A DNA stretch of 63,425 nucleotides, the filler included, from Blastocystis sp. subtype 4 (Eukaryota): the NCBI RefSeq assembly GCF_000743755.1. It is 32 parts of 32 records of this genome, joined end to end, with 100 filler letters (N's around TTAATTAATTAA, not from the genome) between each part and the next. Parts side by side here need not be neighbours in the genome. Positions count along the whole stretch, not along the records: positions 2,000 to 3,908 come from NW_014568803.1; 31 more parts are not named here. One strand, written 5' to 3'. This document shows, one piece after another, positions 2,000 through 59,035 of this stretch. How positions within the stretch are numbered: the first letter of the stretch is position 1; every line of letters starts with the position of its first letter. Under the pieces are notes generated by a model. The model saw only the letters and a program-made list of their open reading frames with translations, had not been told where the DNA came from and did no database searches. The translations under genes were made by a program, and so were the position numbers.

Positions 2000-2354
2000 A
2001 ATGAAGATTTGAAGAATGTAATCAACACTACTCGAGATGTTGCTAGTAATCTGAAGAATGAAGCGATTGATCAAGTGAATGGTAGAGGAAGTGTATTTAG
2101 AGGTGGATCTGTTGTTTCAAGTGTAGAATGTGGAGGCGGATTGCATGTAAGAAGAAGTAATATCGATGATGAGGTAGATGATTATGATATGATGAGTGTT
2201 GGTGTGAAAGTATATGATGATAGTGTTACAAATGATCCAGTAGAAGAAACAGAGAATAANATACAAATCATTGAATGGTGTAGGAGGATTTCGAACTCAA
2301 GCAGTTAGTTGTGGTAAGTTGCGTGCTGTTAGAACAAAGAGATTGGCATTGTAA
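2000..2354 (+). CDS. C-terminal part of an intronless protein with GRG/GGS/GGG motifs and a basic tail (possible capsid or core protein tail)
   Basis: ORF 2009-2308; an ambiguous base at 2260 may hide an indel giving ...YKSLNGVGGFRTQAVSCGKLRAVRTKRLAL*. Confidence 0.35.
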
Positions 2355-2384
2355 CATGATAATGTTTTGTTGTTGTTTGACTTT

Positions 2385-2537
2385 GTGTGTTCGTTTAGTG
2401 ATTTGAACATGCCAGGAGTTCGTATGAGTGATTTGCGTTCGGTTCAGTTTGATGTGCGTGATCGTCATGGTGAAGTAGTATCAATCGCTTCTGACATCTA
2501 CATCAACATCCGTTTGAGTGTGAACGGAAAGGTTTAA
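2385..2537 (+). pseudogene. C-terminal fragment of penton (minor capsid)-like protein
   Basis: Translates VCSFSDLNMPGVRMSDLRSVQFDVRDRHGEVVSIASDIYINIRLSVNGKV*; homologous copies near 47835, 58425 and 34240(-). Confidence 0.6.
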
Positions 2538-2569
2538 TTTAATCTCGATTAAATGGTTGTTAAGATGAT

Positions 2570-3270
2570 TATTCACTTTGGTTGATTCACTTTGTGAAAA
2601 TGCAAAATCTATGATTTTGGTGTAGTAGGGTGTAGTAGGTAGTGTAGTAGCTTACAAAGAAGTAGGCTACTACACTAAAAAGCCCATAAACTGGCTCATT
2701 TATGGGGATATTCTTTTTATTTATGAGGGTTTAACTGACTTATTTATGAAGGTGTAGTAGGTGTAGTAGGTGTAGTAGCCTGTTTTTCAATTCGCCAAAA
2801 CTTTTTGGAGGCTACTACACTACTACACTACTACATCCTCATAACAAGTCAGTAAAACCCTCATAACAAGTCAGTAAAACCCTCATAACAATAATCAAAT
2901 CCTCATAAATGAGCCATTTTATGAGGGATTAAGTGTAGTAGCCTACTTCTTTGTAAGACACTTCACTTTTCACAATAATCACAAAATCTCATTATTGATG
3001 ATAAAATAAAATCTTCTTGATAATAATCATGATTATGTTTATTCACTTTGATTGATTCACAAAATAGTGAATGAAAATCTATGATTTGGTGTAGTAGGGT
3101 GTAGTAGGTAGTGTAGTAGGTTACAAAGAAGTAGACTACTACACTTAAACCCTCATAAACTGGCTCATTTATGGGATATTCTTTTTATTTATAAGGGTTT
3201 AAGTGACTTATTTATGAGGGTGTAGTAGGTGTAGTAGCCTGTTTTTCAATTTTGCAAAGATTTTTGGTAG
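2570..3270. repeat. TGTAGTAG-rich direct/inverted repeat array (A - inverted A' - A)
   Basis: Perfect 26-bp inverted repeat 2651-2676 / 2932-2957; unit ~2570-2810 repeated directly at ~3040-3265; related copy at 48049-48232. Confidence 0.9.
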
Positions 3271-3680
3271 AATTAAGTAGTAGTGTTTTGACGCATGTTA
3301 CATATTTTTATTATCCAGACAAACCGTCGCAAACATGGGCCTCCAACCCTGGGTAGCTATACAGGGTTAACCCTACCAGACAAAATCGCCACGAAAATGC
3401 AGACAAAAAGGCCCATAAACAAGCTCGAAAAGGCAGACATTTTGATCATAATTTGGAAACATATCCAACCCATTTCAAGTCAAATCATGGGCAACAATCA
3501 AGCACAAAATAATTGACACACGTTAACAATGGCTTACAATGGTCAGCAACCCTACCAGCAATATGGGACAATAATTTTGCCGTTGATTTACCTTACATTA
3601 TTAACAATGGTCAACAATGGCTAACAGTGACAGACAAAGTGAAGAACATATATTTTGTTGTTAATTCTTTCTAGCAATAA

Positions 3681-3908
3681 ATGCATTATTCAATAATCAT
3701 TCAAGGTAAACCATCAAATGGATCATTCACATGGGATAATCCTTACCGTTTTAAAAATCCATACATTACTATGATGAAGGTACTATTAACGCCTACTTCT
3801 ACCGCACTATTTTCAAACATTGATCAAACCAATACTGTATCTAATGGTAAAGGAGAATCTGTAGTATTTGAGAAAGGATATTATACTCTAGCTGAGATAA
3901 TCGCTATC
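3681..3908 (+). CDS. N-terminal part of penton (minor capsid)-like protein, 3'-truncated
   Basis: SFTWDNPYRF..MKVLL..FSNIDQTNT...VVFEKGYYTLAEII matches the N-terminal pattern of Polinton/adintovirus pentons; TAAATG start context. Confidence 0.55.
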
Positions 3909-5980: not shown

Positions 5981-6800
5981 TCAAATTCAACATACAATTC
6001 TTATTATCATTCAATACACTCTCTTTCAAGTACTCTTTCCACTTCATTCTCCATTCTACTCCATTCATCTTCTTTGATGTTGATTCAACATTATCTACAC
6101 TCATATTCTTATTATCAATCATTCTTTCTATGATATTATGATTTATTGGCTTATTTCATTCCACTTATTCATACCGCGGGAATCATCTCTATTCTAACAT
6201 ATCATTCATAGTCATATCTTGCTTTCTCATCCTCTATATCATCAATTTGTTATTATTTCGTTAATTCTACTTAGTTTGTGTTTCTATTCATCATAGTTGC
6301 ATCACTACATGCAACTGTACTTGTGTGTTGATGGTTGAATATGGATTGTTGCACCATTCTTCATCATTTGTGTTATCATCACTTTGGTTGTGATAATGAT
6401 GATTATCATTCAAATCATCAAGAGGAATCGATCAACTGATGAAGTGAAGGAAACAATGATTCTCAACAAGACTACAACTGATACGAACAATCCACACTAT
6501 GTTATCTTTGTTTCATTCTCTAATCATTCTCTTTCATTCATATCTCACTATTCTACTATATTCTACTATCATCTCTTCATTCCTATTCAATATTACTGAA
6601 TACAATCACGGGAATATCATTCTCATCATCATTTCTTATTTCCATTCATATCTACACTCTCATATCATATCAATTCTATTCATATCTCACAATTCATCAA
6701 CATCACTTTCTCACTCAGTCCCAATCACATCAATTTGTTATCATTTCATTAATTCTCATCCGTTAATTTCTTCATCACTAATTGTTTCATATGATTGTTG
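5981..6800 (+). repeat. Dispersed non-coding repeat upstream of expanded-family genes
   Basis: Close reverse-complement matches at ~20700-20923 and ~62860-63425, direct match at ~37130-37560. Confidence 0.8.
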
Positions 6801-7882
6801 CTATTCTTCACATTCTGTTTCATTCTTCATTCTACTCTCATTTATAGTTATCCTTTCTTACTCTATTCAATGTTCATCTAACCAGGATTATGTTAAGATC
6901 ACTAAAACAACTACATATTATGCTTCTGAAGAGTCATTTGAGATTGTATCTGGTTCTTCTGTTCTTTTCACTTCTCCTCCATTCGATGATGATCAACAAT
7001 ATGTTTATGAAGTCTGTTTGACTGCTTCTTCTAATCATATCTTCAATCTCGTTATGAGGGATTCAAATGGTGATTATTGGTCTTCAGGTGCTTGGATTGA
7101 GATAGAAGGAATGAATGGAAACATTGTGTACAAGGAAATGATGACTGAAAGGAGTGTTCAAACAGAACAGTTCTCTCTGTATTCTCCTATCAACAAGAAT
7201 GATAGTTGGAAGTACACAAACAGTGTTTCAGACAGTTGGAAGGATGTGAGTTATTCAGATGTTGACTGGAGTGATGTTGTGACAGGAAGTACAACACAGT
7301 CAGTATCTGGAACTCAGTACTTCCGTAAAGTGTTCAATGGAGTTGAAGGGATGGCTGCTGTTGAAATCGAATTGAAGTATCAATATGGAATTGTTGCTTA
7401 TCTGAATGGAGTTGAAGTGTATCGAGATAACATGTCTGATGGACAACCATCAATTGATACTCTCGCTACTGGTAGTTACACTTCCTCTGATTATCATGGA
7501 CTCATTCGTTCTGCTTCTGAAGTGAGTGAATCGAATGTGTTATCTGTTGAAGTCCATTTCACAGATTCAAATCATGAAGAGATCATTCAATTCAATGGAT
7601 TCTTATCTCTATTGGCTGGAATGAGTTCAACCAACAATTGCTTCGTTTATCCTTATAATGTTACTGCCTCTTCTACTGACTTCGATGATCCTAGTTATGT
7701 TGTTGATTGGAGCTGTGATCTCTTTGCATCCTCCTGGAATCTACCGAGTTCGATGATGTTTGATTTTTCTGATTCTTCTATTCCACTCATCAATTCTTAT
7801 CGATTCTTACCAATTAGAGCTTCTGCAGCGCCTTCTTCATTCTCTATTGAAGGATCTGTATCAACTGATGACTCTTGGAACA
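6790..7882 (+). CDS. Ig-like/beta-sandwich surface protein family member, N-terminal part
   Basis: Signal-like hydrophobic segment, then family motifs WSSGAWI, YSPINKND, TQYFRK, GIVAYLNGVEVYRDNM shared with paralogs in the window. Confidence 0.75.
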
Positions 7883-9934: not shown

Positions 9935-10024
9935 CGTGAGGAGTATGCTGCCATGAGACAGAGTGGAAAGCTTGTTGCTGATGGTAACATCGCTAAGTAT
10001 GTTCCTGATCACGGAAAGCTTTGA
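9935..10024 (+). CDS. RPL10: 60S ribosomal protein L10 (uL16), C-terminal fragment
   Basis: REEYAAMRQSGKLVADGNIAKYVPDHGKL* resembles the RPL10 C-terminus; TGTTTGTT downstream. Confidence 0.7.
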   Translation, partial: REEYAAMRQSGKLVADGNIAKYVPDHGKL

Positions 10025-10114
10025 AACTATTGAGATTCTCAATAGTCATTCACAAAGGTGGAGTTGTTTGTTTGGAAACTCACATTCGATCTGCATTCTA
10101 CAAACAAACACTTA

Positions 10115-11531
10115 AATGCATAAGGGGAATGTATCTACGTTCAATATTGTACCTTGACAGAATCTGAGATACCATCATCTGTCGAATTTGACTACAACTT
10201 CCTCCAAAGCAATCACGATGAAACAACACTGAAGTCCCGAAAGAACCATCACAACTTTGTGGAATCCACGTCCGGTGCACCAAAATAGAGATAACAGATT
10301 GATCCTGACGATGATTCTTTCTTGAACTGCCATTAGGCGATATACATTTACGAGTATACGCACATTCCAAAAATGGAATAATAAGGGATTTGATTACTGT
10401 GGCATTCCTGTAATCAAACAACATATAACCTCCAGAACACATATCTTTTCCTCTGCGAATATGAGAAATAGAATAGTGACTCATCATATACTGAAAGGTT
10501 CTGGGATGGGTCCATTGTTGAACCGAACCACCACTACTTGGAGAATAGAATCCAAATTGTTTCGCACGATGAATATCCGACAGTATGCTTTCTGGAAGGA
10601 TACTACCTCCATCTGCCCAAATTGTTAGATGCCGACTCTCCTTAAGTACGTCCACAATACTGATAACCTTCCAAGAATAACCTCCACGAATAGATCTATT
10701 GGTAATATTCCACCAACTAGGGAAATGTTTGAAACAGAACTTGCGGTAATAGATTACTGCAGATGAATTCAGATATGTATGAATCCGATGAATTTGGTCC
10801 AATTCATCCCATAAAACATGTAAATGCGAAGCGGTAATTCCATAGTCAACCAACACAAATGATGTGAAACAATTCTGAATCACAATTGAATATAGAAGAT
10901 TTAGAGTTGTGTAAAAGTGGTTATCTGAACAACCTGTAACAATAATATAATCACAATCCTGAAAGGCAAGATTTGAAACATCTCCTAAATTAATAAATGC
11001 TGGAACAGATTGTATTTCAACACGTTCATAACGCAAGGACTTGTTGTTGTACAATTCAGAAAAGGGGACTGGATATTCGATTTCTGGATAATCATAAACT
11101 AGAAGTAAGAGTTGTGTCAATGATCATCACTATTTGTAGTGTTTAATCCAAATCTAGGAAGCCATTTGAAATTGTTATATGTATCATCCTCCTGGTACCC
11201 TCCACTGATTTGAGGACGATCTATATCAAATATAACACCCGAATCTACTTAGGTTTTTGGCTTTCGCAATAGCGGTAATACGATATATCGAGTTGTTTTC
11301 ACTAATTTTTATCGTCCTGTCCTTATAGTAACACAACGAACTAGCTGGAATATATACACGATATGTTGCACGATCATAAAGCACTGAATATTCCATTAAT
11401 AGTAAAAAGGGAGATACTGATATCACGTAGGATTGTGGAGGACAAACATACCGGGACACATAGAACAAGCCGACCAAAACATAAACGCCCACAAATACGC
11501 AAACACAAAGGTGATGCTTCATCTGCTGCAC
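10115..11531 (-). CDS. DUF1647-like (glycosyltransferase-like) type II membrane protein, spliced
   Basis: VTGCSDNHF, YSWK, WADGGS, HRQDQSVIS motifs; N-terminal TM segment; probable polyA-created stop at 10115. Confidence 0.7.
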
Positions 11532-16479: not shown

Positions 16480-16760
16480 TATAACTGAATCAAATCGCGT
16501 TTTTATTGACATATAAGAATAAGCTATCTTCCGTGTTTCTATCCAGTTATATGAATAGCAAAATTAGCGCATATTTCTAGTCACACATTTTGCGGTTATT
16601 CGTCACTCCGTTTACTGTACCATCTTTAGTGTCAGAAAGTTTGTTTTACTTTGTTCACGCTTACTTAACCATTTTGCACTCCTTCTTTTGGTATCAGCTC
16701 AGGGAGGTGTGGCACCAAGCACTGTACCCTCCACAGAGCACGTAGCGCCTCAGATCTCGA
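16480..16760 (+). mobile_element. Conserved non-coding module (putative element end), copy 1
   Basis: Homologous to 48255-48540 and 58740-59035 (ATCTTCCGTGTTTCTATCCAGTT; TTGCGGTT(A/G)TTCGTCAC); GC-rich hairpin-like end. Confidence 0.6.
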
Positions 16761-17649
16761 TGAATTGTAATGAATTGTCGTAGAAACAGTCAATCATTTG
16801 TCTTTGAGATGTGGATCCAATAGAACAAGGAATGATAAGACGACTGCCAGAAATATGAACTAAATATTGATTCCAAATGGTTTGTTATATCACTGTTAAC
16901 AGATCTAGACATTGACTTATCTGAATTGTGTGTTTTCAACCAATCATCATTTCTGACCTTGGAAGTGAAATGCGGAATCTAGAATCGAAATTAGCATCAA
17001 TAACTCAACAGTTTGGTTGATATCATCATTGAGAACAACGATTCCATAGGTTCATTGGTTCATAATTATTATATTCATTTGATCACTAAACAGGTCTTTT
17101 CCGTCTATTGAGCAGCTTATGCACAATTTGATTGGTTTGAAACCAATTATCCAATAGGAAACGATAGATTATTGGTTGATAACCATACCTTCAGTTCTTC
17201 GAAGCTTCTATTCTTGTTTTGTGAGATGAATGAGAATTGAGTTGAATAAGAGAAAGGCATGTTCCGTATTTAGAAGGGAATATTGTTTATCCCATTCTGT
17301 TTATCTAAGAGTTGATGTGAATTGGTTGTTTGTTTGAATTCATAATCAGTCAAACCAAATTGATGTAAATGACACATTATTAAGGAAATTGGATGCAACA
17401 ACAATCTCTGATTCTAATTGAATAGTTCTAGTGATGAATATCACATGCATCAGAAACAGAGTTCATTATCAATAGAATCTAGTTATTTCTCAGGATATCT
17501 AATTCAGTGGATAATTCTGAATAGCTTGTTCTTTCGGTCTTTTACTATTCCTCTTTTGGAAATGTCAATTGCTGTTGCATAACAAGCAATCTATTTCGCT
17601 ATTTGCCTTTGATTCTATTAGAACTCTATTGGAGATGTAACTACCCTTA

Positions 17650-40301: not shown

Positions 40302-41366
40302 TTAACTCCTCTTACAAGGAAATCCATTTGTATCAACAGAGGAACAGTGAAAAAGCCTCTCTCCTTGATTCTCCAGCAAGTCAGCAAACTGAATCACACT
40401 TATAAACTCAGTAGGCAATCCCTCTTTCCCTACATATGCACCTAAAATGTTACCACAGACTGCTGCTACGGAGTCGCTGTCTCCACTGTGATTGACACAT
40501 GCACACAAGGCCTCTTTAACATTTGTTCTATAACGCAGACAGCAATACAATGCTATCGCTAGATTTTCATCCGCTCTCCAACCCAGTCCCAACTTCTTGA
40601 TATCCATATAAGGATCCTCTTGAGGAGTTTCGCTCAATTCTACTCCCCTTTTCAGAACAGTGTAGAGGGGCAGACCATCAGGTTGTGTAAGAAGATATTG
40701 AAAGCAATGATCGATTGCAGGTTTCATTTCCTCACCTTGTAATAATAGAGCGATAAGCATGCACATAACTCCAGCAGATAAATAGGCAGAACTATGACCA
40801 TGGGTTAATGCAGCACAATCTCGACCTAACAGAAAAGCAAGTTTGGGATTCTTATAGCAATAGATCCCTATCGGAGCTGATCGCATGATTGTACCACATC
40901 GTACTCCCTCCGGTGCGGGATGATTAACTGAATACATTTCACCACTTAACAGAGCAGCAAAGGTTGAACCACCACGACACATTCGTTTATCAATTCCATT
41001 ATATTCTAACAATTCATTCTTTTCCAATTCTTCTTTTAAATACATGTTTTCATACAAGGAAACGACATTCTCGTTCACTAAGGAGTTAATCCAACGCAAA
41101 TAAGATTTATGTACTTCTTGAACTGTTTCCAAATAGTTACATCCCTTTTCATATGCATGTAATAACCCCTGTGCAGTATAGATTGTCATCTGTGTATCGT
41201 CTGTGATTAACGAAATTCCATCTGTAGTTTCCATGTGATCAAGTCCCTTCTCACCATAGATTTTCACAATCGTTGAATACGACTTATGCTCCACAGGGTA
41301 ACCTAGAGCATCACCACAAGCTCCTCCAAGTAGCGATCCAATGATTCGTGACTGAACTGTGGGCAT
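40302..41366 (-). CDS. ADP-ribosylglycohydrolase family protein (intronless)
   Basis: GGACGDALGYPVE, TDDTQMT, MRSAP, THGH, VNHSGDSDS motifs. Confidence 0.93.
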   Translation of the reverse strand: MPTVQSRIIGSLLGGACGDALGYPVEHKSYSTIVKIYGEKGLDHMETTDGISLITDDTQMTIYTAQGLLHAYEKGCNYLETVQEVHKSYLRWINSLVNENVVSLYENMYLKEELEKNELLEYNGIDKRMCRGGSTFAALLSGEMYSVNHPAPEGVRCGTIMRSAPIGIYCYKNPKLAFLLGRDCAALTHGHSSAYLSAGVMCMLIALLLQGEEMKPAIDHCFQYLLTQPDGLPLYTVLKRGVELSETPQEDPYMDIKKLGLGWRADENLAIALYCCLRYRTNVKEALCACVNHSGDSDSVAAVCGNILGAYVGKEGLPTEFISVIQFADLLENQGERLFHCSSVDTNGFPCKRS

Positions 41367-58193: not shown

Positions 58194-58575
58194 ATCCTTC
58201 TGGTCCTGCTTATGATCTAGTATTTCAACAAGCACCTGATTTGCGTCGAATATTGGGATTTGATGAAATTCAGGCAAGTGGTGTTAAAGGAAAAGAACCA
58301 GTAGATGTATCAAATGGATTGAATTGTATTCGAATCTACAGTAATCTGATAAAGCAGATGATATCATTTGAAACAAGTCCATTAGTGGATTGTATGATTT
58401 ATTCAACAATGGGATTGAACAATATGTGTTCGTTTAGTCATTTGAACATGCCAGGAGTTTGTATGAGTGATTTGCGTTGGGTTCAGTTTGATGTGCATGA
58501 TCGTCATGGTGAAGTAGTATCAATCGCTCAGACATCTACATCAACATTCGGTTGAGTGTGAACGGAAAGGTTTAA
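58194..58575 (+). pseudogene. Penton-like C-terminal half, 1-bp frameshift near the end
   Basis: APDLRRILGF...PVDVSNGLNCIRIYSNLIK...QFDVHDRHGEVV. Confidence 0.65.
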
Positions 58576-58739
58576 GTTCTGTTTTACATAATCATGATTT
58601 TGTTAATGCACTTTTTATCTGTAAGTTGAGCAAGTGAATATGGTGAATTCACCAACGATTAATGGATTTCTCAAAGATCGACACCCAGACAATTCATCCT
58701 CCTTAACCTATTTGTTACCTCATAATATTCACCAATCGA

Positions 58740-59035
58740 ATTCGTGCTTACATTACTGATTCCATCCGCAGTTATAATGACACATTACTAATAACCATCT
58801 TCCGTGTTTCTATCCAGTTTTATAAACAACAAATTTGACTATATTTTTGGTCACACATTTGCGGTTGTTCGTCACCCTGTTAACTGTACTATCAATTAGG
58901 TCAGATGTTTGATTCTGCTTTGTTCACAGCCTTTGGACCATTTACATTACCATTTAGTTTCACCTTGTTGGCTTCAGCTCAAAGATGTGAAGTGCTTTGA
59001 GCCGCTGCCTCCGCAGAGCACACTGAGCTCAAGCC
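58740..59035 (+). mobile_element. Conserved non-coding module, copy 3
   Basis: Homologous to 16480-16760; hairpin GCTCAAAG..CTTTGAGC near 58977-59002. Confidence 0.6.

Follow-up and report, generated by a model that had tools for sequence, protein, structure and literature searches.

A dispersed unit of iterons and hairpins in a likely Polinton/MELD-virus-like provirus of Blastocystis

Introduction

Many DNA viruses of eukaryotes are held to descend from Polinton-like and MELD viruses, whose cis-acting DNA (origins, end-recognition sites, packaging signals and promoters) is almost unknown. Protein-primed origins and integrase sites work at the very ends of the DNA, as in adenovirus, phi29 and the retroviral integrases, and an integrase of the retroviral type normally works at the very tips. 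The hrs of baculoviruses are recombination hot spots that are bound by a viral protein and that serve as enhancers and origins. In phage P4 the octamers of ori and crr are bound by the alpha protein, and in SV40 the GAGGC pentamers are bound by large T.

For Blastocystis, a common gut protist of humans and animals, the part of Starrett et al. 2021 (PMC8502044) that deals with the 'Blastocystis MELD virus' reports an adintovirus-like PolB and integrase, and virion proteins that are unrecognisable by sequence. We found no description in the literature of repeats such as those reported here in Blastocystis elements or in polintons; section 3.4 of PMC8502044 is silent on them, and its figure 5 or the accompanying records may annotate them.

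Here we follow up a sequence-only reading of DNA from Blastocystis sp. subtype 4, in which a palindromic array of short repeats had been put forward as the possible origin, terminus or junction of an element. We find that the array is made of a discrete, easily recognised unit that is found both at the ends of a very abundant, probable provirus and at the borders between blocks inside it. The unit appears to be part of a repeat at the ends of the element, comparable to the terminal inverted repeats of Polintons/Mavericks, adintoviruses and MELD viruses; it differs from them in its start ~265 bp from the end, its composition of iterons and its additional copies between blocks of genes. The unit provides a defined piece of DNA on which binding and replication can be studied, as well as a marker with which to delimit proviruses in fragmented assemblies, and it explains the breakage of short-read assemblies at these proviruses.

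Materials and methods

The window is the whole stretch of DNA that was analysed, 63,425 bases in length. It is composed of 32 contigs of 1.66-3.3 kb each, roughly ordered by decreasing length and joined by linkers of the form N44-TTAATTAATTAA-N44; contigs that adjoin each other in the window do not do so in the genome. The GC content of the window is ~36% and its contigs carry eukaryotic genes, such as actin (E 2.5e-138). A host enzyme at 40302-41366 falls in the same 90%-identity cluster as a protein named for Blastocystis subtype 7, and the integrase, helicase and penton-like proteins of the element carry the name 'Blastocystis sp. BT1'.

Metagenome loci (designated by L and a number) were retrieved with a pattern for the small hairpin of the array, which yielded 16 loci on 15 contigs from human-gut assemblies. 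(An earlier, looser iteron pattern matched 83 unrelated stretches, mostly coding repeats, and loci L001-L080 were left out.) The canonical unit was defined by aligning 17 copies together with their flanks, which gave a length of ~235-260 bp and sharp borders. Read-level data were Logan contigs, which are short unitigs broken inside the repeat; gaps in them (for example 2832-3215, in RNA runs) carry no meaning. The Logan runs are labelled mouse, rat and seawater, with a top word share of 0.41, and were used only as evidence that a sequence exists in independent data.

Results and discussion

The array consists of copies of one unit

The whole array is confined to one 1909-bp contig, at 2000-3908 of the window, and consists of two and a half copies of a unit of ~250 bp, namely a unit, an inverted unit body and a second unit (Table 1). 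All the features that the sequence-only reading had described here are present. The 26-bp inverted repeat with arms at 2651-2676 and 2932-2957 is perfect, extends no further on either side and has its midpoint at 2804. The imperfect palindrome around it, put at ~310 bp in that reading, measures ~330 bp: arms at 2641-2795 and 2796-2967 match in 127 of 176 aligned columns, and a repeat search returned arms at 2641-2721 and 2887-2967 (81 nt, 81% complementary). Two small hairpins are indeed nested in it, and single-stranded DNA of 2615-2970 folds with -100.1 kcal/mol (z = -18), a value that none of 100 shuffles equalled. The iteron TGTAGTAG occurs 26 times on the two strands of the whole window, as against 1.23 expected (0/100 shuffles reached 26), and 17 of these copies fall within 2621-3237. 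Around a centre near 2795, plus-strand copies at 2753, 2762 and 2771 face minus-strand copies at 2812, 2820 and 2828, as had been claimed. There is also, as claimed, a direct copy downstream: 2565-2808 and 3035-3267 are 85.8% identical over 247 columns.

Table 1. Features of the array, its flanks and related sites, in positions of the window
Feature	Positions	Strand	Evidence or remarks
3' portion of the gene for a 428-aa element protein ('c13' family; unmatched in Pfam)	2000-2354	+	90.7% identity to L091 618-105
Relic: last 51 codons of the short (227-aa) penton-like gene	2384-2537	+	95.6% identity to L094 1124-699 (whole 227-aa ORF)
Left extension found in several copies of the unit; contains a small GATTCAC/GTGAA-type hairpin	2565-2619	+	17-copy alignment; direct repeats D9, D11
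Unit copy 1 (type A)	2620-2838	+	Direct TGTAGTAG at 2621, 2631, 2643; hairpin 1, 2641-2677; hairpin 2, 2683-2707
Unit copy 1, left stem, three iterons	2751-2781	+	
Unit copy 1, loop, ~30 nt below canonical	2782-2808	+	
Unit copy 1, right stem, three inverted iterons	2809-2838	+	
Unit body in inverted copy, giving rise to the long palindrome	2839-2967	-	Counterpart in L095 10237-10349
Spacer: two diverged left extensions head to head, no ORF	2968-3088	.	L095 alignment; ORF list
Unit copy 2 (type A)	3089-3300	+	Left-stem iterons two, not three; right arm degenerate from 3268
Conserved stretch upstream of the long penton-like gene	3278-3459	+	72% identity to L099 10468-10278, L095 5-160
5' end (76 codons) of the ~1000-aa penton-like gene, truncated where the contig stops	3681-3908	+	96% identical to P0003
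Terminal-segment relative (76% identity) behind a host-like gene, unit absent	16529-16766	+	
Decayed second copy on another contig: end of the short penton-like gene, one degenerate unit, diverged terminal segment	47832-48238	+	
Third copy of the end of the short penton-like gene, then non-unit sequence, then a terminal-segment relative (58800-59021)	58425-59021	+	

The canonical unit begins at its left end with three direct iterons, the third of which pairs with an inverted fourth as a 12-bp hairpin; a second small hairpin follows, then an AT-rich stretch, three direct iterons, a loop of ~50 nt and three or four inverted iterons. Each unit thus holds ~10 iterons, spaced at 8-12 bp, as direct and inverted copies on either side of an AT-rich loop; iteron-type origins likewise have an AT-rich region with short repeats next to it, spaced at about one helical turn. 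The loop of copy 1 differs from the canonical one by a deletion of ~30 nt between two TTTTGGA words. The inverted body, which shares its stem-loop with copy 1, contains a 22-bp tandem duplication (2837-2880) and an inverted hairpin 1 (2932-2967). A search of Rfam gave no match at the gathering score, returning microRNA-precursor models only (best 44.4 bits against a threshold of 110). Of note, the 'GCCCATAAAC..GCT' word of the unit has two further copies outside the units, at 3391-3426 upstream of the long penton-like gene (repeat family D4).

Genes flanking the array

The sequence-only reading had placed the array between a penton-like 3' end and a penton-like 5' end. Both sides are penton-like, but on the upstream side this applies to a 51-codon relic that stands behind the 3' end of another gene, the low-complexity c13 protein of 428 aa. 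A single N at 2260 stands for 9 bases in this gene, since 8 extra bases are present in all four DNA runs and in L091; with these restored, 2000-2354 is one frame with its stop at 2352-2354. We had considered 2000-2308 and 2355-2537 as two exons or as the product of a frameshift, and rejected this because the N hides 8 bases and the first gene stops at 2354. A 33-nt in-frame GT..AG stretch at 2098-2130 was likewise rejected as an intron signal and is an indel between copies: it is present in the window and in L087 and absent from L091 and from one RNA-labelled contig, and because L091 is a DNA contig, its absence from the latter is no intron signal.

The relic derives from a short paralogue, whose complete 227-aa ORF in L094 was matched by hhalign to the N-terminal domain of the long penton-like proteins (probability 90%, E 1.4e-6). 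Relatives of the ~1000-aa penton-like protein downstream form clusters with hundreds of members, on contigs of up to 26 kb, and the two metagenome sequences that match the conserved stretch upstream of its gene each adjoin the start of a penton-like gene.

The units belong to a multicopy element

We mapped 24 copies of the unit in 15 contigs; 8 of the copies are cut by a contig end, and every one of the 24 adjoins genes of the element or its terminal segment. The genes of this element point to its likely identity as a multicopy Polinton/MELD-virus-like provirus of Blastocystis. A retroviral-type (rve) integrase is encoded at L097 8622-9629 (PF00665, E 1e-9, score 39 bits, cut-off 32.6), and its sequence is recorded on 889 contigs, which argues that the element is highly multicopy. 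A KilA-N protein matches Pfam with E 1.7e-7, and a D5/P4-like primase-helicase of 1017 aa matches DUF5906 (E 1.3e-8) and phrog_1156 DNA primase (3e-12). A 651-aa protein is a predicted pPolB: 29 of its 30 neighbours in a language-model atlas lie in the DNA_pol_B_2 (PF03175) set (score 0.93, 188 shared features), and polymerase-like motifs are visible by eye, with no match in Pfam or PDB sequence searches. For the capsid, a low-confidence model of P0005, a relative of the ~1000-aa protein encoded downstream of the array (mean pLDDT 59.6), has the mavirus penton as its six best PDB matches (E 1.3e-6 to 1.6e-5) and, as its best BFVD match, a 'Putative penton capsid protein [MELD virus sp.]' at 47% identity. 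The model suggests that the element encodes a jelly-roll penton (minor capsid) protein of the kind expected in a Polinton/MELD provirus. The product of L097 12829-14031, considered as a candidate for the double jelly-roll major capsid protein, packaging ATPase or maturation protease, gave no Pfam match, and most ORFs of the element stay nameless in Pfam, PDB-sequence and PHROG searches, a dozen of those next to units being without any family. With the Blastocystis MELD virus, as the text of PMC8502044 presents it, the element has in common its host and its gene set, that is, a predicted pPolB, an rve integrase and penton-like virion proteins that sequence similarity does not reveal.

This distribution does not bear out two proposals of the sequence-only reading. 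The array is no single origin, as the unit forms a dispersed family with copies beside at least six different genes; nor is there a special tie to the penton-like genes, the association being with the whole element. Units stand behind the genes for the helicase, pPolB and short penton-like protein and behind c15 and c45, and in front of the integrase and helicase genes; between gene blocks they occur in both orientations. Their flanks fall into 7 left and 7 right classes, which appear in 13 different pairings among the 16 rows that have both flanks, and the switch from one flank to another always lies exactly at the unit border. Only three of these pairings (a+3, d+2 and e+3) are found in at least two independent assemblies.

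The unit lies next to a terminal segment

In four loci (L092, L094, L095 and L099) the right arm of the unit is directly followed by a segment of ~265 bp that is 97-100% identical among them; a partial segment is present in L096. Past one identical point (...GGCCTCAGGCCTC), the four loci continue into four unrelated sequences, and the iterons lie ~265 bp from this end of the element. A relative of the terminal segment at 16529-16766 of the window occurs without a unit, which indicates that segment and unit are separable. In L094 the terminal segment and the unit stand inverted on both sides of one 227-aa gene, the right end being cut by the end of the contig, and this locus looks like a small derivative element that retains only the ends. 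Among the metagenome contigs examined, no full-length element had both ends on one contig. The terminus reading of the array is upheld in so far as the unit appears to belong to the terminal inverted repeat region; the array itself is no unique terminus.

Two features of the terminal segment may be mentioned. A GC-rich hairpin stands at its end (L099 3937-4211 and relatives, including 16529-16766 and 58800-59021 in the window), which is unusual at 36% GC. The boundary also carries the tandem word GGCCTCA GGCCTC, which would suit the slide-back step of protein-primed replication.

A proposed reading of the unit as terminal-repeat part and recombination joint

Our best reading, to which we give a probability of about one half, is that the unit is the inner part of the terminal inverted repeat, likely a cluster of sites for a protein of the element, dispersed in the manner of an hr and acting as a recombination joint. 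The unit would form the inner half of a terminal inverted repeat of ~530 bp, and its ~10 iterons would be bound by a protein of the element, through which the ends would be marked for replication, integration or both, the candidate binders being the D5/P4-like primase-helicase, the KilA-N protein and the integrase. Dispersed copies would serve as substrates of homologous recombination, by which gene blocks could be inverted, deleted and swapped; because the copies are long, near-identical and present in both orientations, we propose that they are sites of recombination between copies. The palindrome in the window would then be two units joined tail to tail around a single stem-loop, with an 'empty' inverted pair behind it.

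Several observations bear on this reading. When the metagenome loci were compared, the units coincided with every rearrangement breakpoint seen. For example, L095 and L099 agree at 99.2% identity through 6.5 kb outside the element, the adjoining terminal segment and the unit, and diverge at the left border of the unit, where one continues into the 5' end of the helicase gene and the other into the 3' end of the pPolB gene. The helicase gene, which inverted units bracket, is moreover turned round in L084 relative to L086 and in L092 relative to L095. (Note that such alternative junctions rest on short-read metagenome assemblies, in which misjoins are possible at a repeat of 250-530 bp.) Contigs of 10-16 kb hold 2-4 copies, in both orientations and as imperfect palindromes. 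Baculovirus hrs are, like the units, imperfect palindromes scattered in both orientations and sites of recombination; unlike them, the units number only a few per element of ~15-20 kb and are unrelated in sequence and lineage; an hr-like function of the units is hypothetical. By such comparisons the behaviour of the unit appears closest to that of hrs and of the subterminal repeats of DNA transposons, and its location to that of a part of a Polinton/MELD-type terminal repeat.

The iterons themselves are well conserved. In an alignment of 19 copies of type A, no variation is seen at 66 of 70 iteron positions, as against 139 of 192 other positions (Fisher p = 7e-5, calculated over copies that are not independent of one another). 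In addition, there is a second type of unit, type B, in which all iterons, direct and inverted, read GGAGTAGG/CCTACTCC. Its parts follow one another as in type A, and much of its loop is retained. Type B units were found at L084 1-185, L094 1720-2035 and, in part, L091 1-100, and the copy in L094 has the long palindromic form. Such a concerted change of ~10 sites per unit is what would be expected of binding sites for one protein; uniform iterons within a unit could alternatively arise through intramolecular pairing of the arms or gene conversion, with no protein involved. The earlier reading of the 8-mers as iterons is supported by their spacing, conservation and concerted replacement; that they bind a protein is our interpretation of these sequence features. 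In run X18, one loose end suggests that the iteron may have a third version, TGTGGTAGG. Against our reading as a whole speak the position of the iterons ~265 bp from the end, given that protein-primed origins and integrase sites work at the tips, the terminal-segment relative that lacks a unit, and the presence of both unit types in single contigs.

The unit as a possible internal replication origin

All four complete helicase genes (L084, L086, L092 and L095) are bracketed by inverted units that lie 70-80 nt from the coding region. We therefore weighed the possibility that units are internal origins for the D5/P4-like primase-helicase, in which iterons would be initiator sites on either side of an AT-rich loop that melts and the gene with its inverted units would be an initiator-origin module. 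The primase matches of the helicase and the arrangement of the iterons speak for it, and it has counterparts in the ori/crr of phage P4 and site II of SV40, where short direct and inverted repeats likewise surround an AT-rich stretch by the gene for a primase-helicase of the D5/P4 family. Unlike those origins, units also lie behind the pPolB, penton-like, c15 and c45 genes and before the integrase gene. Moreover, iteron type is independent of the helicase: L084, L091 and L094 each contain both types, and one and the same helicase (98-99% identity) is preceded by type B in L084 but accompanied by type A in other loci, which argues that iteron type marks neither element lineage nor helicase specificity. 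The predicted protein-primed polymerase of the element would require no internal origin, and IMG/VR yields no relative of the helicase for comparison (nor one of the long penton-like protein, and the hairpin pattern is unmatched there). Initiator binding would be an analogy, and we consider this explanation unlikely.

The unit as a conceivable enzyme-driven joint between cassettes

The 3-kb helicase gene stands in opposite orientations relative to the neighbouring block in L084 and L086 and relative to the terminal segment in L092 and L095. (A helicase gene between inverted units resembles an invertible segment or symmetric cassette.) It is conceivable that the provirus is a set of gene cassettes parted by a common joint of iterons and hairpins, and that an enzyme of the element, either the rve integrase or the D5/P4-like helicase, inverts, drops and swaps the cassettes, with the dialects TGTAGTAG, GGAGTAGG and perhaps TGTGGTAGG setting which joints are partners. 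This would amount to site-directed shuffling in a virus of eukaryotes, with a logic comparable to that of integron attC sites or invertible segments. We hold this extension to be speculative and no more probable than internal origins; if it were true that an element enzyme acts on the joints, it would represent a new route by which small eukaryotic viruses exchange replication and capsid modules.

The unit as a possible transcription signal

In 5 of the 7 left-flank classes the 3' end of a gene enters the unit, with its stop codon 7-80 nt away. In one case a unit lies between two convergent genes, the start of the integrase gene is 39 nt behind a unit, and the fold of the canonical unit is strong (z = -8.5). 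Accordingly, the unit might be read as a palindromic, orientation-independent terminator or 3'-end-processing hairpin, on the model of the mimivirus hairpin rule, possibly with promoter or enhancer activity too, on that of baculovirus hrs. What makes us doubt this, slightly more than we doubt an internal origin, is that a unit beside the terminal segment and the 5' end of the helicase gene has no incoming gene (L095, L086), and that a hairpin has no need of the three direct iterons at the left end of the unit. The palindromes of the mimivirus hairpin rule are, furthermore, specific to each gene, unlike one repeated sequence. Pieces of the unit are contained in RNA-labelled libraries (X17 record 2 corresponds to 2427-2778 and X18 to 2604-2806); as carry-over of DNA is possible and the contigs have neither ends nor strand, these permit no inference on transcription.

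The unit as a possible MITE-like parasite

Inverted pairs of units enclose either a gene or almost nothing (2839-3300 in the window; L095 10237-10711). With a non-coding length of ~250 bp and inverted iterons at both ends, the unit could in principle be a short, MITE-like transposon whose terminal repeats are iterons and which has multiplied inside copies of the provirus, and the 'empty' pair at 2809-3300 would be one such parasite. The subterminal transposase-binding repeats of En/Spm, Ac, Mu and Tn7 also comprise several short motifs, oriented either way and no more than a few hundred bp from the ends, and their derivatives, like L094 and 2839-3300 here, are short forms that keep the ends and lose the cargo. 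Unlike in those systems, no target-site duplication was seen at the unit borders in 16 rows (a test that the recombined flanks weaken), and the enzyme would here be a retroviral-type integrase. None of the 24 copies lies in clear host DNA off the element. We find a MITE-like origin improbable.

Concatemer junction and assembly artefact as improbable alternatives

A head-to-head concatemer junction, as had been proposed, or a hairpin telomere of a replicating linear genome would account for a palindrome of ~330 bp whose central loop resembles a fold-back, and the long form recurs in L095 and in the type B unit of L094; it is very improbable because no terminal segment stands between the inverted units in the window or in L095, so that two element ends do not abut here, while the arms match at just 72% and the DNA runs on into different element genes on both sides.

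That the array is an assembly artefact, through repeat collapse or a chimera in a fragmented draft, is just as improbable. The contig is one of 1.9 kb in a short-read draft, 8 of the 24 unit copies end contigs, and no second contig with the exact short loop of copy 1 was found among the Logan contigs, which break inside the repeat. On the other side, the independently assembled L095 has the same direct-inverted-direct triple at 9965-10683 (85% identity over 736 columns, with the parts in the same order at 85-95%), and one contig of another run spans 2812-3103; together these argue that the arrangement is no artefact of this assembly. In L095 the triple sits behind a different gene, and its third unit starts an intact right arm before the contig ends.

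Sequences at contig ends and outside the element boundary

In L096, GC-rich genes of NagB/NagA-like, bacterial-looking type (165-1963) are joined to a truncated terminal segment and a unit, and L096 is probably a chimeric metagenome contig. The contig ends at L094 2370-2394 and L087 10-50 carry what we take to be sequencing-adapter sequence, in the latter case translated into the last residues of an ORF. Outside the boundary of the element, a 684-aa ORF with an Exo_endo_phos (AP-endonuclease-like) domain (L095 4245-6299, L099 4192-6246) reads towards the boundary and ends ~8-20 nt inside it; this may be a retroelement or a gene that adjoins the insertion site. In L092, an ORF with a hAT-family dimerisation domain (6465-7565) lies ~600 nt outside the element boundary.
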